Part shown: in pieces, positions 6,753 to 19,710 of the stretch
Position numbering within the stretch: position 1 is the stretch's first letter
How the letters are laid out: each line of letters begins with the position of its first letter
Origin: a virus
Taxonomy: Duplodnaviria; Caudoviricetes
Virus record (IMG/VR): IMGVR_UViG_3300017645_000119
Coordinates: 1 to 24,461 of that record
Direction: 5' to 3' (one strand)
DNA: 24,461 nt
Made by a program: the position numbers and the translations under genes
Notes under the pieces: model-generated
Databases searched by the model: none
Told to the model about the DNA's origin: nothing
The model's input: the letters and a program-made list of their open reading frames with translations, nothing else

Positions 6753-6971
6753 TTACGCATGCTCAGCCTCTTTGGTGGGGCGGTACACGTCATCAAAGGT
6801 CAAAGAGACCCCAAGCGTGCTTGCGAACTCGATCAGCCGGGCCGCCACATCAGGAGGCACTGTTTGCCCCTTTTCGTAATGGGACACGTTTCCTTGAGTG
6901 ACGCCGATACCGCGCGCCAGCGCGGCTTGGCTGAGTCCTAACCTGGAGCGGATTTGATATATGGGCTTCAT
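6753..6971 (-). CDS. cro: Cro-like XRE HTH repressor (probably leaderless)
   Basis: IRSRLGLSQAALARGIGVTQGNVSHYEKG; divergent from cI. Confidence 0.88.
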   Translation of the reverse strand: MKPIYQIRSRLGLSQAALARGIGVTQGNVSHYEKGQTVPPDVAARLIEFASTLGVSLTFDDVYRPTKEAEHA

Positions 6972-6978
6972 AAATACA

Positions 6979-7046
6979 AATAGTGCCACTAGTTACGACG
7001 GCAGTCAATAGTGGCACTCGTTGCAGATATTACTAGCGCAGCTAAT
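6979..7046. promoter_or_regulatory. OR operators and PR promoter
   Basis: AATAGTGCCACTAGTT (6979-6994), AATAGTGGCACTCGTT (7007-7022), weaker site 7031-7046; minus-strand TTGACT-N17-CACTAT. Confidence 0.75.
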
Positions 7047-7541
7047 ATGTTTCCTATGCCACGCACAGAGCCGAGAAAAGCGAAGATCGAGCCGATTCAC
7101 AAAGAGGAAGCGGCGGCCCTTAAGCGCCTGTACGATGCAAAAACCGATGGGCTGTCTCAAGCGGCATTTGCGGCTGAATATGGACTCGGATCGCAGGGGA
7201 ACCTTTGGCAATACCTTAATGCCAGAAGCCCATTGAACGCCTCCGCAGCGTCTAAATTTGCTGCGGCTCTTGGGGTAAAAGTTAGGGATTTCAGCCCTCG
7301 CCTTGCTGATGAGATTGATGCGCTGGCTGGCGCTGAGCAGGATATGAGGGCTACGCCGAGCTATCGACCATGGCCGTTCAAGCGGCTAAGTCAAGACAAG
7401 ATATGCGCCCTGGACCACAAGAACTTCCTGCTTTTAGAGGCGGCTTTCATGGACGCCGCCCTGGGCGTAGGCTTGGATGTGCTGGCCCCGATGACGCCTA
7501 AACGAGCATCCTCCCCTCCGGCGAAGAAGAACACGGCTTGA
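7047..7541 (+). CDS. cI: CI-like repressor; lambda-type N-terminal HTH, no recognisable S24 peptidase domain
   Basis: LKRLYDAK..GLSQAAFAAEYGLGSQGNLWQYLN...PLN...KFAAALGVKVRDFSPRLADEI; short C-terminal WPF domain; start 7047 or 7056. Confidence 0.85.
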   Translation: MFPMPRTEPRKAKIEPIHKEEAAALKRLYDAKTDGLSQAAFAAEYGLGSQGNLWQYLNARSPLNASAASKFAAALGVKVRDFSPRLADEIDALAGAEQDMRATPSYRPWPFKRLSQDKICALDHKNFLLLEAAFMDAALGVGLDVLAPMTPKRASSPPAKKNTA

Positions 7542-7582: not shown

Positions 7583-8161
7583 ATGAGAAAAACAATACTA
7601 AGTTTGATTGCGACGGTGTTGCCATGGATTTGGCAATCCGCGCCCGCCCAATCTATGGTCGCAGCGTTCATGGGCGCCCAAACACAAATGCACGTAGGGA
7701 AAGACGGAAAGGTTGAGGCTTGCGGCATGAGAGTCACAGGCTTTGATGACGCCGCAGAAGTGAGAACCGTCTTTGACACTTCCCTGACTCTCAGGGCGGC
7801 GGGCTTTGGCCTTGGCAAGCTGACTGGGTCAACAGGCCCGACGAGCGGCGATCTGAGTAAGTTCAAGTCGAAGCAAGTGTATGGGGGCTGGTTTCGAAAA
7901 CAAGGAGGGGTGCCCACTACGCCCCTCAAACCCTACTTTCCCGGTGAGGACCCGAAAACGAGGCTATTCATAGCTGATGCCACCCCGACCATGGAGGTGC
8001 TGGAGGCAATTGTCTTAAAACAGCCCATTCATATAGCAATTTCCTGGCGCGAAGGGAGTAGCACAATCTATTACGGCACTCCCGAGTTGGAAAATTCTCA
8101 GCGAGATCAGTTTTGGGCGTGTTTTGAGGACTTGATAAAGGTCATCAAGGCATCGCATTAG
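7583..8161 (+). CDS. Hypothetical exported protein (lysogenic conversion position)
   Basis: MRKTILSLIATVLPW...APA signal-peptide-like N-terminus; GAGG RBS; two Cys; directly downstream of cI. Confidence 0.75.
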   Translation: MRKTILSLIATVLPWIWQSAPAQSMVAAFMGAQTQMHVGKDGKVEACGMRVTGFDDAAEVRTVFDTSLTLRAAGFGLGKLTGSTGPTSGDLSKFKSKQVYGGWFRKQGGVPTTPLKPYFPGEDPKTRLFIADATPTMEVLEAIVLKQPIHIAISWREGSSTIYYGTPELENSQRDQFWACFEDLIKVIKASH

Positions 8162-8246
8162 CCCTCTTGGGGGGGGGTTGGGTTTGGGCTGGTGACTGGC
8201 TGGATGCGAGTGAGCCGATCTAGGGTTTCCACCTATTAAATGACTA

Positions 8247-8275
8247 TTGACACCGCTACAATGTAGCGGTAAACT
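8247..8275 (+). promoter_or_regulatory. acr-aca promoter with palindromic operator
   Basis: TTGACA (8247)-N17-TAAACT (8270); perfect inverted repeat ACCGCTACA-A-TGTAGCGGT (8252-8270) fills the spacer. Confidence 0.85.
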
Positions 8276-8334
8276 GTAGTTATGGTGATCAACACCAAAC
8301 CGCGCCTCGGGATTCAGGGGCCAGGAGATGAAAA

Positions 8335-8496
8335 ATGAGCCAACAACACACCTACGCTGAAATCGCTGCCGACTACCATCTGTGGATTGAATTTGTAGAC
8401 ACTGACGCCGTCATGACAGAAGCCGAATTCAATGATCTGACCATCGATCAAAAGGTGGTCTTGCAGATCGAGGCATTTGGTCCTGAGAATGCCTAA
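8335..8496 (+). CDS. acrIE4: Anti-CRISPR protein, AcrIE4 homologue (53 aa)
   Basis: Own translation MSQQHTYAEIAADYHLWIEFVDTDAVMTEAEFNDLTIDQKVVLQIEAFGPENA; aligns without gaps to AcrIE4 as I recall it; AGGAG RBS; acidic; followed by an Aca-like HTH. Confidence 0.88.
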   Translation: MSQQHTYAEIAADYHLWIEFVDTDAVMTEAEFNDLTIDQKVVLQIEAFGPENA

Positions 8497-8998
8497 TCAC
8501 CCGAATCGAGGGCCGAAAGGCCCTGCCGCAAACCCTGCGCCTGATGATATTTCCGCCGCACGCATGGCTGCGGGTTTGACCCAGCGCCAGGCTGCAAACC
8601 TGATACATGGCACCGAGGCGGCGTGGCGGTCGTGGGAGTCTGGGTTGAGGCGCATGCCCCCTGGACTGTGGGAACTATTCAACATCAAAACTGGTTGGCC
8701 ATTGGCCGCCAAGGGAAACGACATGGCTGACAAGCTGAGCGCTCTGCTGGATTCGATCATCGAGGCGAATCCTGAGCTGGCTGAGAATCGTGTGTATCTG
8801 ACGTCCGTCGCCAGAGGCTCCCGGCTCATGAAACGCTACGGGAAAAACGGAGGAAGCGATGCGCCCGCCCCTGGCCCAGGTTTTGATGAGTGGTTTGCTG
8901 GGAATGCGTTGTACGTCGGCGCTTGCAACCAGGTGCGCAAGATTGTGGGCAACGTTGAGCCCAACATCACCCGCCAGATTGTGGCGCTGGTACAATAA
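8489..8998 (+). CDS. Aca-like XRE HTH regulator fused to an unknown C-terminal domain
   Basis: NPAPDDISAARMAAGLTQRQAANLIH...WRSWESGLRRMPPGLWELFNIK resembles Aca10-type regulators as recalled; start overlaps the acr stop; in-frame internal ATG at 8723. Confidence 0.8.
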   Translation: MPNHPNRGPKGPAANPAPDDISAARMAAGLTQRQAANLIHGTEAAWRSWESGLRRMPPGLWELFNIKTGWPLAAKGNDMADKLSALLDSIIEANPELAENRVYLTSVARGSRLMKRYGKNGGSDAPAPGPGFDEWFAGNALYVGACNQVRKIVGNVEPNITRQIVALVQ

Positions 8999-9054
8999 GT
9001 CCAGCACGCTGAGGTTATGTTAGTTCCACCCAGTGCGCATATCCTAATCAGATC

Positions 9055-9080
9055 AGCCGCCTACGGGCGGCTTTTCTTTT
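9055..9080 (+). terminator. Intrinsic terminator of the acr-aca operon
   Basis: AGCCGCC-TACG-GGCGGCT followed by TTTCTTTT. Confidence 0.85.
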
Positions 9081-9187: not shown

Positions 9188-9203
9188 CTGTATAAATACA
9201 CAG
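9188..9203. promoter_or_regulatory. LexA (SOS) box
   Basis: CTGTATAAATACACAG = CTGT-N8-ACAG with AT-rich core. Confidence 0.85.
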
Positions 9204-9271: not shown

Positions 9272-9469
9272 ATGACAGCACAGAAAAACGAGAAACCACC
9301 TGATCTCCGCAAAATTGTACGGCTCATTCGCGAGCAGCCCACCTATACACCTAAAACCAGGCGCGCCCTGCTCCGTCAGTTTCTAGGCGAGATTCAAGAC
9401 CTTGCATACCAAATTGATGCTCTGTTGACCCTCGAAGAAGAACAAGAAAGCCGAAGTCGCCCAGATTGA
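9272..9469 (+). CDS. Small putative SOS-regulated protein (65 aa)
   Basis: MTAQKNEKPPDLRKIVRLIRE...; AAGG RBS; flanked by an SOS box and a terminator. Confidence 0.65.
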   Translation: MTAQKNEKPPDLRKIVRLIREQPTYTPKTRRALLRQFLGEIQDLAYQIDALLTLEEEQESRSRPD

Positions 9470-9528: not shown

Positions 9529-9572
9529 AACTAGCGGCACTATTGACAGTCCATTTAACTAGTGGCACTATT
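9529..9572 (+). promoter_or_regulatory. OL operators and PL promoter
   Basis: AACTAGCGGCACTATT (9529) and AACTAGTGGCACTATT (9557, exact reverse complement of the OR site at 6979); TTGACA (9543)-N17-CACTAT (9566). Confidence 0.85.
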
Positions 9573-18188: not shown

Positions 18189-18467
18189 ATGGTGCGATAT
18201 GTAACAATCGCCCGCTTCGCGGCCATGTCCGGCTATACCGAGAACGCCATCCGAACCAAACTGAGGGACGGAATATGGAGGCAGGGCTGCGAGTGGATAA
18301 AAGCCCCTGATGGGCGAATTCTCATCGACACGCAAGGATATGACACATGGGTAGGGACGGAAGGGGTGTTGCCCCCGCCTCGGAAAGCAGTATCCAGATC
18401 ACATTCCAGTACCGTGGGCAGCGCTGCCGGGAAAAAATTCGGATCAAGCCCACGCCCGCTAATCTGA
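18189..18467 (+). CDS. xis: Excisionase
   Basis: RYVTIARFAAMSGYTENAIRTKLRDGIW..G.EWIKAPDGRILID; GGAG RBS; overlaps the integrase start. Confidence 0.88.
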   Translation: MVRYVTIARFAAMSGYTENAIRTKLRDGIWRQGCEWIKAPDGRILIDTQGYDTWVGTEGVLPPPRKAVSRSHSSTVGSAAGKKFGSSPRPLI

Positions 18468-19519
18468 AGCGAGCCGAGCGGCACCGGGCTGCCATTCTCG
18501 TGGCGATTGAGTCCGGGACGTTCGACTACGCCGCCACGTTTCCCAATAGCCCCAATGCGGCCAAGTTCGCCGCCGTCCCAGGCCAGACAAAGACCGTTGA
18601 AACCTACCTGACTGACTGGCTAAAGTCAGCAGAAAAACACGTCAAGGCATCCACCCTTGATGGATATAGGAAGGTTGTCGACAACCTGCTAATCCCGAAG
18701 TTCGGCCAGGTTATGCTGGCAAGCTGGAGGCGGCCCGACGTGAAGGCGTGGCTTGAGGGCATGACGTGCAGCAACAAGCGCCTGGCCAATATTCAAAGCG
18801 TCATCCGAAAGGCCCTGGATGACGCTGTCGAGGACGAAGATCTGGAGTCAAATTTCATGAAGGGCTACTGCTACCAGAAAAAAGAGCCTCCAAAAGATGA
18901 GGATGACATTGATCCCTTCACCCCCGACGAACAGGCCGCTATTCTGGCCAGGTGCCCGCCGGAATTTGCCAACCAAGTGACCTTTTCGCTGTGGACGGGC
19001 CTGCGACCAAGCGAACTGATTGCGCTGAATTGGTCTGACATTGATTTCGTGCGTGGGCGCATCGTCGTCAGGAAAGCGATTACACAGGCATCCAAGGGCA
19101 AGGTTGAGGATACGAAAACATCGTCGGGCCGGCGTGAGGTGAAGATCCTGGCCCCTGCAGCTGCGGCGCTCAAAGCTCAGAAGCCGCGCACCTTCCTTGC
19201 AGGCGACCCCGTATTCAGGAACCCAGGCACTGGCGAGCGCTGGACGGGAGATCAGCAGATCAGGGATTTATGGGTGCGGGTGCTGAAGCTGGCCGGGGTG
19301 CGTTACCGCTGGCCGTACCAGATGCGCCACACCTACGCATCCATGATGCTGTCCGCAGGCGAGCATCCAATGTGGGTTGCCAAGCAGATGGGGCACAAGG
19401 ACTGGACGATGATCGCCAAGATCTACGGTAAGTGGATGCCTGCGGCAGATCTCGATGCAGGCGGGAAGGCCGAGGCACTTTTTGCGCCGGCCCAAACGAG
19501 GGATCGCCGGGCCGGCTGA
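18347..19519 (+). CDS. int: Tyrosine integrase with N-terminal arm-binding domain
   Basis: SIQITFQYRGQRCRE arm domain; TGLRPSEL, TKT, YQMRHTYAS, MGH, IYGKW catalytic motifs. Confidence 0.97.
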   Translation: MGRDGRGVAPASESSIQITFQYRGQRCREKIRIKPTPANLKRAERHRAAILVAIESGTFDYAATFPNSPNAAKFAAVPGQTKTVETYLTDWLKSAEKHVKASTLDGYRKVVDNLLIPKFGQVMLASWRRPDVKAWLEGMTCSNKRLANIQSVIRKALDDAVEDEDLESNFMKGYCYQKKEPPKDEDDIDPFTPDEQAAILARCPPEFANQVTFSLWTGLRPSELIALNWSDIDFVRGRIVVRKAITQASKGKVEDTKTSSGRREVKILAPAAAALKAQKPRTFLAGDPVFRNPGTGERWTGDQQIRDLWVRVLKLAGVRYRWPYQMRHTYASMMLSAGEHPMWVAKQMGHKDWTMIAKIYGKWMPAADLDAGGKAEALFAPAQTRDRRAG

Positions 19520-19619: not shown

Positions 19620-19710
19620 TGGCGGACAGAGGGGGATTCGAACCCCCGATACGCTATAAACGTATACACGCTTTCCAGGCGTGCGCCTTCAACCACTCGG
19701 CCACCTGTCC
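19620..19710 (-). tRNA. tRNA-Ser (anticodon GGA), prophage integration site
   Basis: GGACAGGTGGCCGAGTGG...CACGC-CTGGAAA-GCGTG, long variable arm, GGTTCGAATCC, encoded CCA. Confidence 0.97.

Follow-up and report, generated by a model that had tools for sequence, protein, structure and literature searches.

A segment of 894 nucleotides in a lambdoid prophage, at positions 8187-9080 on the plus strand of the window (the whole 24,461-nucleotide stretch of viral DNA that was analysed), is best explained as a mobile cassette in which a homologue of AcrIE4 likely blocks type I-E CRISPR-Cas, a repressor of the Aca10 family likely shuts its own promoter, and a helical domain fused to that repressor likely serves as a second anti-defence protein. 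We hold this composite reading with somewhat better than even confidence, and it builds on directly observed sequence features and homologies, a second copy of the cassette and three domain architectures of the fused domain. The elements are arranged in the order promoter/operator, leader, acr gene, HTH fusion gene and terminator. The pairing of acrIE4 with an aca gene is an ordinary, well-understood kind of operon, whose core is strongly supported by sequence; the less ordinary and new part is the fusion of an Aca10-type regulator to a ‘cargo’ domain of no known family.

The fusion is encoded by a gene of 169 codons (8489-8998, plus strand), in which an Aca10-family HTH (approximately residues 1-69) is followed by a loose linker and then by a 91-residue, all-helical domain (8723-8998, plus strand). 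An earlier note on this DNA, made from its letters alone, had described an HTH gene overlapping the acr gene; the overlap exists (the ATG at 8489 overlaps the acr stop by 8 nucleotides), but the gene does not end after the HTH, its frame continuing through the additional domain. A homologue search with the 169-residue protein returned eight proteins, including a nearly identical copy from a metagenome locus (L002). P0002-P0004 display the same fusion of HTH and domain, at 57-61% over the full length, P0005 is a weaker instance of it, and in P0007 the C-terminal domain is preceded by an N-terminus of another kind. Two of the eight, P0006 among them, are HTH proteins with other tails. A search of 1.8 billion representative sequences produced 14 matches, of which five were kept; the other nine were lengthy or repetitive and aligned as numerous short fragments. 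Together with a profile search (eight matches), it contributed P0010 and a set of seven proteins, 94-124 residues long, in which the domain stands alone. The motifs R, A-G, M and DEW-N are invariant among them. The N-terminus of P0007 (residues 3-43 only) aligns with residues 9-49 of AcrIF25 (PDB 8JDH; E 2e-8), so that in P0007 and P0010 the domain follows an AcrIF25-type RHH module; the cargo itself has no sequence match to the active domain of AcrIF25. The domain therefore occurs in three architectures: alone (seven proteins), HTH-led and RHH-led.

Modelled by itself with AlphaFold2 (11 sequences), the domain adopts a confident all-helical fold with a pLDDT of 95.7, and in a model of the full fusion it forms one of two separate domains joined by a loose linker with a pLDDT under 50. 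It has no match in Pfam, NCBIfam or PHROG and no sequence match to a known Acr, and it is near neutral (pI 7.9); many Acrs are acidic. Fold searches with the domain gave generic helical matches, the best (Z 8.0, rmsd 2.6, 86 residues aligned) to a designed protein, an atlas search likewise yielded nothing specific, and such an outcome of fold, family and atlas searches does not show a new fold. A Foldseek search with the full-length model, which returned nothing under E 0.001, is uninformative because even Aca10 was not matched. Stretches matching the domain number seven in GTDB genomes and one in IMG/VR; none was found in phages, in plasmids or in five whole viral records, no loci of stand-alone or RHH-fused homologues were found in IMG/VR, and the domain is absent from 124 loci sharing the leader motif of the cassette and from 42 loci encoding RHH modules (both described below). 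Metagenomes provided three candidate homologue loci, two of them this same cassette and the third (L003) set aside as a weak match of 15 residues. For guilt by association, the domain thus has this cassette, the nearly identical copy of it and the modules to which it is fused.

The layout is that of the regulator-Acr fusions (AcrIF25, AcrIE10, AcrIF24 and AcrIIA1), which combine a DNA-binding module with a separate cargo domain, and on this ground the fused domain is a good candidate for a new anti-defence protein. According to PMC13551039, AcrIF25 does not need its RHH for Acr activity, and one homologue has an HTH in its place. This swap is mirrored here by a cargo that two proteins carry after the AcrIF25 RHH and other proteins after an HTH; the same paper also records non-Acr genes in Aca-controlled operons. 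AcrIE10, an RHH-Acr fusion, represses its own promoter, as PMC13530269 reports. The cargo differs from AcrIF25 in having no match to its active domain or to a known Acr fold, and the arrangement differs from AcrIF24, where the HTH is C-terminal.

The fused domain opens with an in-frame ATG at 8723, which is preceded at a distance of 6 nucleotides by a ribosome-site-like sequence of its own, AAGGGA (-5.3 kcal/mol). The strength of this site is only average for a real start (13 of 20 real starts in the window are as strong or stronger), and 11 of 105 other internal ATGs within window genes reach the same strength. A methionine is kept at the same boundary in P0002-P0004, P0007 and P0010. A survey of RHH junctions drew on 41 viral loci that encode this module plus L028 (42 loci in all) and found the RHH pattern in 38 of them, representing 34 distinct proteins, of which 32 are fusions belonging to six cargo families. 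At the junction, 31 of the 32 fusions, and all six cargo families, have an ATG in frame that is served by a ribosome site at least as strong as -4 kcal/mol, against a background within cargo bodies of about 20% for a methionine and 27% for such a ribosome site. These counts are not independent, as they descend from one shared ancestral module whose final VE codons themselves spell GGAG, and the feature is for that reason a pattern to test and not proof of use. One of the six cargo families is AcrIF25 itself (L159, E 1.5e-41), and the largest, which database look-ups of the L002/L179 family label only as ‘hypothetical protein’, we take to be AcrIC6. As a group, the RHH loci (L157-L197, for example L158, L162, L166, L171 and L182) join the AcrIF25-type RHH to six or more cargo families, including four that are uncharacterised, and nearly every junction carries a ribosome site and ATG of its own. 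Listings of openly accessible papers on Acr-Aca fusions, internal starts and the N-terminal domain of AcrIC6 brought up no description of Aca10 fused to another domain, nor of internal starts in genes of this kind.

These observations bear upon two quite different accounts of the fusion. In the first, which extends the preferred reading and which we offer tentatively, as something rather short of an even bet, the 91-residue domain would found a new family of anti-CRISPR proteins. Aca10 and the AcrIF25-type RHH would act as ‘plug-in heads’ that end in a ribosome site and ATG, such that one frame would yield two products, a fusion that represses its own synthesis and an inhibitor free of the head. 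In the second, the fusion is an accident, created when an aca10 gene lost its stop codon and ran into a downstream gene of 91 codons, leaving the small protein started at ATG 8723 as the working product and the long form as a repressor with a passive tail. The ribosome site and ATG at 8723 would suit such a history, as would the disagreement of gene callers, which start the protein so as to give 91, 114 or 169 residues, the loose linker, and the fact that the 16 viral relatives of the HTH all stop 67-82 residues past their conserved start while the window frame runs to 169. However, the lineages of P0002-P0004 have kept the linker open even though their halves are only 65-71% (HTH) and 54-57% (domain) identical to the window protein, and the domain has been fused a second time, to an unrelated RHH regulator; an accidental fusion consequently appears unlikely.

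The place of the cassette in the prophage might hint at a different purpose for the domain. Gene and family annotation shows that the window (from an IMG/VR record that is about 40% complete) covers host flank and that half of a lambdoid prophage which carries the early genes, as the earlier note had supposed in assigning the unit to a prophage immunity region: the cassette lies beside a cro-like HTH gene (6753-6989) and a cI-like repressor gene (7056-7541), replication and ninB-type genes occupy the minus strand, and ERF, YqaJ and SSB genes are also present. An integrase gene (18347-19519) adjoins an intact tRNA-Ser (GGA) gene (19620-19710), and the latter is likely the attachment site. The host probably belongs to the Burkholderiales, because the flanking glyA scores best (721 bits) against PDB 4N0W and 4MSO, which are Burkholderia enzymes, with the following entries at 601 bits or less.

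Several other features of this region may be recorded. Sites of the type TAGTGSCACTA are repeated at 6979-7044, between cro and cI, and at 9530-9572, before the next early promoter (10 matches, where 0.85 would be expected), and are likely the operators of the phage cI and Cro proteins. A LexA-box-like site (CTGT-N8-ACAG, 9188-9203) lies upstream of a 65-codon reading frame (9272-9469); a single match against 0.28 expected is weak when taken alone, and a similar site is found at the start of L002. Between cI and the cassette, a frame of 192 codons (7583-8161) has a hydrophobic N-terminus and no match in Pfam, NCBIfam or PHROG, and might possibly encode an exported or exclusion protein.

The cassette occupies the interval from cI to the early leftward-type promoter, a location at which exclusion genes are found in lambdoid phages, and the fused domain, with no match to a known Acr fold and a near-neutral charge, could on that account serve superinfection exclusion or host manipulation from the immunity region. 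The comparison with L002 points elsewhere. Locus L002:761-1653 is 98.5% identical to positions 8187-9080, with no similarity in the flanks on either side, and its setting is that of another phage, where the cassette lies 5' of Rz/Rz1-type lysis genes and 3' of another small gene; an identical copy is also present on a contig of 451 kb (L001). Because a 98.5% copy recurs in another phage setting, the segment is, as judged from these sequences, a cassette that moves as a unit. The limits of the cassette were drawn from this second copy, and the self-contained unit at 8247-9080 that the earlier note had delineated is thereby confirmed, with limits close to those found here. As the L002 copy sits beside lysis genes, the location next to cI appears to be incidental; in addition, an autorepressed promoter suits a short burst of expression and not steady exclusion in a lysogen, and both fusion partners of the domain are regulators of Acr operons. 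An exclusion or host-manipulation function is, on these grounds, distinctly unlikely. The gene that precedes the cassette in L002 (L002:388-714) is a stand-alone cargo, 64% identical to the cargo of the largest RHH-fusion family, and is itself preceded by a 75-codon frame (L002:32-259) with no assigned family.

The first gene of the cassette (8335-8496, plus strand) encodes an acidic protein of 53 residues (11 D/E, 1 K/R; pI 4.05), and begins 7 nucleotides downstream of an AGGAG Shine-Dalgarno sequence (8323-8327, plus strand; duplex -7.9 kcal/mol). Both the reading frame and its ribosome site had been correctly picked out by the earlier note, which also believed the frame to be hidden below the size cut-off of gene callers; that belief was mistaken, as the exact protein is present in JGI/IMG, Logan and ENA gene calls. 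Its proposed likeness to AcrIE4, for which a database comparison had been suggested, is clear. Residues 2-53 match the AcrIE4 domain of AcrIE4-F7 (PDB 7VZM) at E 6.6e-13, the sole PDB match up to E 10; the protein scores 70 bits against Pfam PF25703 (cut-off 27), and 29 phage records match it at 53-58%. Among the latter is orf31 of Pseudomonas phage D3112, which we take to be the founding AcrIE4 and with which 27 of 51 positions are identical without gaps, in keeping with the earlier estimate that about half would be. The label ‘AcrF31’ attached to PF25703 was rejected as a sign of a type I-F target, since the family matches D3112 orf31, and we read it as a gene number. A further apparent AcrIE4 match, in L004, was rejected as false.

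Mutational data on the AcrIE4 domain in PMC8887544 indicate that E19K and D22K each abolish binding to Cas8e, that Y20A causes an 18-fold loss and that D30K/E31K causes a 24-fold loss. The two essential acidic residues, E19 and D22, are kept in the window protein, as are E31 and the entire hydrophobic core (I10, L16, W17, F32 and F48), and the protein shares with AcrIE4 its acidity, its homology over the full length (53%, gap-free) and its place as the first gene of a small operon. It differs in its Aca10-family partner and in its probable Burkholderiales host (a range that is not new, because homologues from Chromobacterium and Burkholderiales are listed in PMC8887544). It differs also at three positions from the AcrIE4-F7 domain (Y20F, D30A and E12A), of which Y20 and D30 are Cas8e contacts; at position 30, D3112 orf31 departs from that domain as well. 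These substitutions could be taken to mean that the protein is now a poor inhibitor of type I-E systems, or that it acts on another Cascade subtype. That interpretation is very unlikely, considering that the residues at which one mutation sufficed to abolish binding, the core and the net acidic surface have been retained, that D3112 orf31 is matched over its full length, and that the frame and its signals are intact both in the window and in L002. The protein is, as far as such comparisons allow, likely functional against type I-E CRISPR-Cas.

The regulator that follows was recognised in the earlier note as something other than Aca1, and can now be placed in the Aca10 family: residues 13-72 of the 169-residue protein match Aca10 of Pseudomonas citronellolis (PDB 7XI5) at E 9e-15, the sole PDB match under E 0.1. 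Aca9 was rejected as an alternative identity, as its sequence in the supplement of PMC9410906 has, by eye, no shared motifs; a protein with the same NHPNRG start is found there near the Aca10 entry. As described in PMC9410881, an Aca10 dimer binds a repeat of 19-21 bp with a 1-nucleotide centre across the -35 and -10 elements, using R44 and Q22 to bind DNA and G49, E52, H30 and K57 to hold the dimer. All six residues are kept in the window protein (as R54, Q32, G59, E62, H40 and K67, respectively), whereas three read-out positions are changed (R34A, Q37R and Q38S), and the operator differs accordingly. The arrangement is otherwise that of the acrIC7-acrIC6-aca10 operon, with the HTH gene 3' of an acr gene, a hairpin-bearing leader and a 19-bp inverted repeat with a 1-nucleotide centre in the core promoter. 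The protein departs from the plain single HTH of about 65 residues that defines Aca10, and is better described as an Aca10-family domain in a fusion. The genes acr and aca are reported to pair freely in PMC9410906, where Aca2 is described as having a longer C-terminal dimerisation domain. That the C-terminal domain is, as in Aca2, simply a part of the regulator, for dimerisation or sensing, would agree with its position behind two DNA-binding modules, but is scarcely credible given seven stand-alone homologues with no DNA-binding part, dimer residues already contained in the HTH, and a model with two separate domains. Among the papers searched, none names both ‘Aca10’ and ‘AcrIE4’.

The sigma-70-type promoter TTGACA-N17-TAAACT, which the earlier note had proposed, is present at 8247-8275 on the plus strand and agrees with the consensus at 10 of 12 positions, a likeness that alone does not exceed chance (three such sites between 7000 and 10500, against 2.4 in shuffled sequence). 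The call is strengthened by comparison with related loci, where the position of the promoter relative to operator and leader is the same, and by a perfect inverted repeat between the hexamers. That repeat (8252-8270, on neither strand in particular), which had escaped the earlier note, consists of 9-bp arms around a 1-nucleotide centre and is the predicted Aca operator; it occurs once in the window, where perfect repeats of its type number three, against 0.5 in base-shuffled copies. Its 19 bp recur identically in locus L005, inside an otherwise different promoter, and L005 is the only one of the 16 viral HTH relatives with the same recognition helix; different perfect promoter repeats were found for five of the other 15, and none at the threshold used for ten. 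This agreement between helix and operator is, short of an assay, the best support for presumed autorepression. A search of IMG/VR for the palindrome returned five matching stretches, one of them the L005 promoter; the remaining four, with no HTH or acr gene within 1.5 kb, were taken as chance. Apart from its operator and recognition helix, the L005 operon (L005:631-1617) adds two anti-defence candidates, containing a 105-codon gene with no known family, an RHH fusion with an acidic, uncharacterised cargo and a solo Aca10-like gene. At the opposite end of the cassette, the terminator that had been predicted was located as an intrinsic-terminator-like hairpin (9055-9072) followed by a run of T (9055-9080 overall, plus strand), and it is kept in L002.

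Between the promoter and the acr gene, the leader is predicted to form a small hairpin (8283-8297, plus strand), and stems of other sequence are seen, by eye, at the same place in related loci; folding of the whole leader is not unusual (z = -0.61). The hairpin is followed, directly 5' of the acr ribosome site, by a conserved motif, CCGCGCCTCGGG-N-CAGGGGC (8300-8321, plus strand), that the earlier note had not mentioned and that has no Rfam match above the gathering score. A scan of IMG/VR for this motif returned at least 124 loci, from an estimated total of about 270 stretches. An ATG lies 11-13 nucleotides 3' of the motif in 90 of 126 distinct units, a repeat occupies the promoter position in 36 of 124 loci (against six in a control window), and an Aca10-like HTH gene in the same orientation follows the motif in 23 of the 72 units with enough flank, whereas one lies upstream in one of 70. 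PMC13551039 describes a predicted RNA motif in aca10 leaders, for which binding is not shown there, and prints the P. citronellolis leader, in which an element of loose similarity comes after a hairpin. What is seen in the window is probably this already known acr-operon leader. The motif was rejected as a feature specific to Aca10, being found also in a promoter labelled Aca3, and may possibly be a marker for anti-defence genes. More widely, it is present in numerous small phage operons whose promoters are strong (L030-L153), most of them with no nearby Aca10 gene, and is present in two or three copies on some contigs (L037, L078, L082 and L093); in L039, an Aca10-like HTH located 256-760 nucleotides past the motif has a different tail of about 95 residues.

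These elements can be assembled into a sequence of events. When the phage enters a cell or is induced, the sigma-70 promoter, still free of repressor, would be highly active, by analogy with Aca1 and Aca10 operons, and the 53-residue acidic protein would, with good probability, occupy the PAM-reading site of Cas8e, as demonstrated for the homologous AcrIE4 domain. Translational coupling at the acr stop would supply the HTH. In what we regard as the most secure of these steps, its dimers, held together by helix 4, would then settle on the 19-bp repeat that separates the -35 and -10 elements and close the promoter. The C-terminal domain would be made both as the 169-residue fusion and, fairly probably, alone from ATG 8723, and it would, with slightly less assurance, act against a host defence; a CRISPR-Cas system would be the likeliest single target, a specification to which we attach a little less than even confidence.

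The pair of operator and recognition helix is a clean one and is open to immediate testing, and the fused domain, compact, confidently folding and found behind two regulators of Acr operons, is a ready candidate for Acr and anti-defence screens. If the internal starts are used, then genes now annotated as ‘Aca’ or ‘RHH-Acr’ would each make two proteins, and both the reading and the dose control of AcrIF25- and AcrIC6-type genes would change. If the regulators do behave as plug-in heads, scanning for internal starts behind such heads, which already precede at least six cargo families, would offer a new way to find anti-defence proteins.
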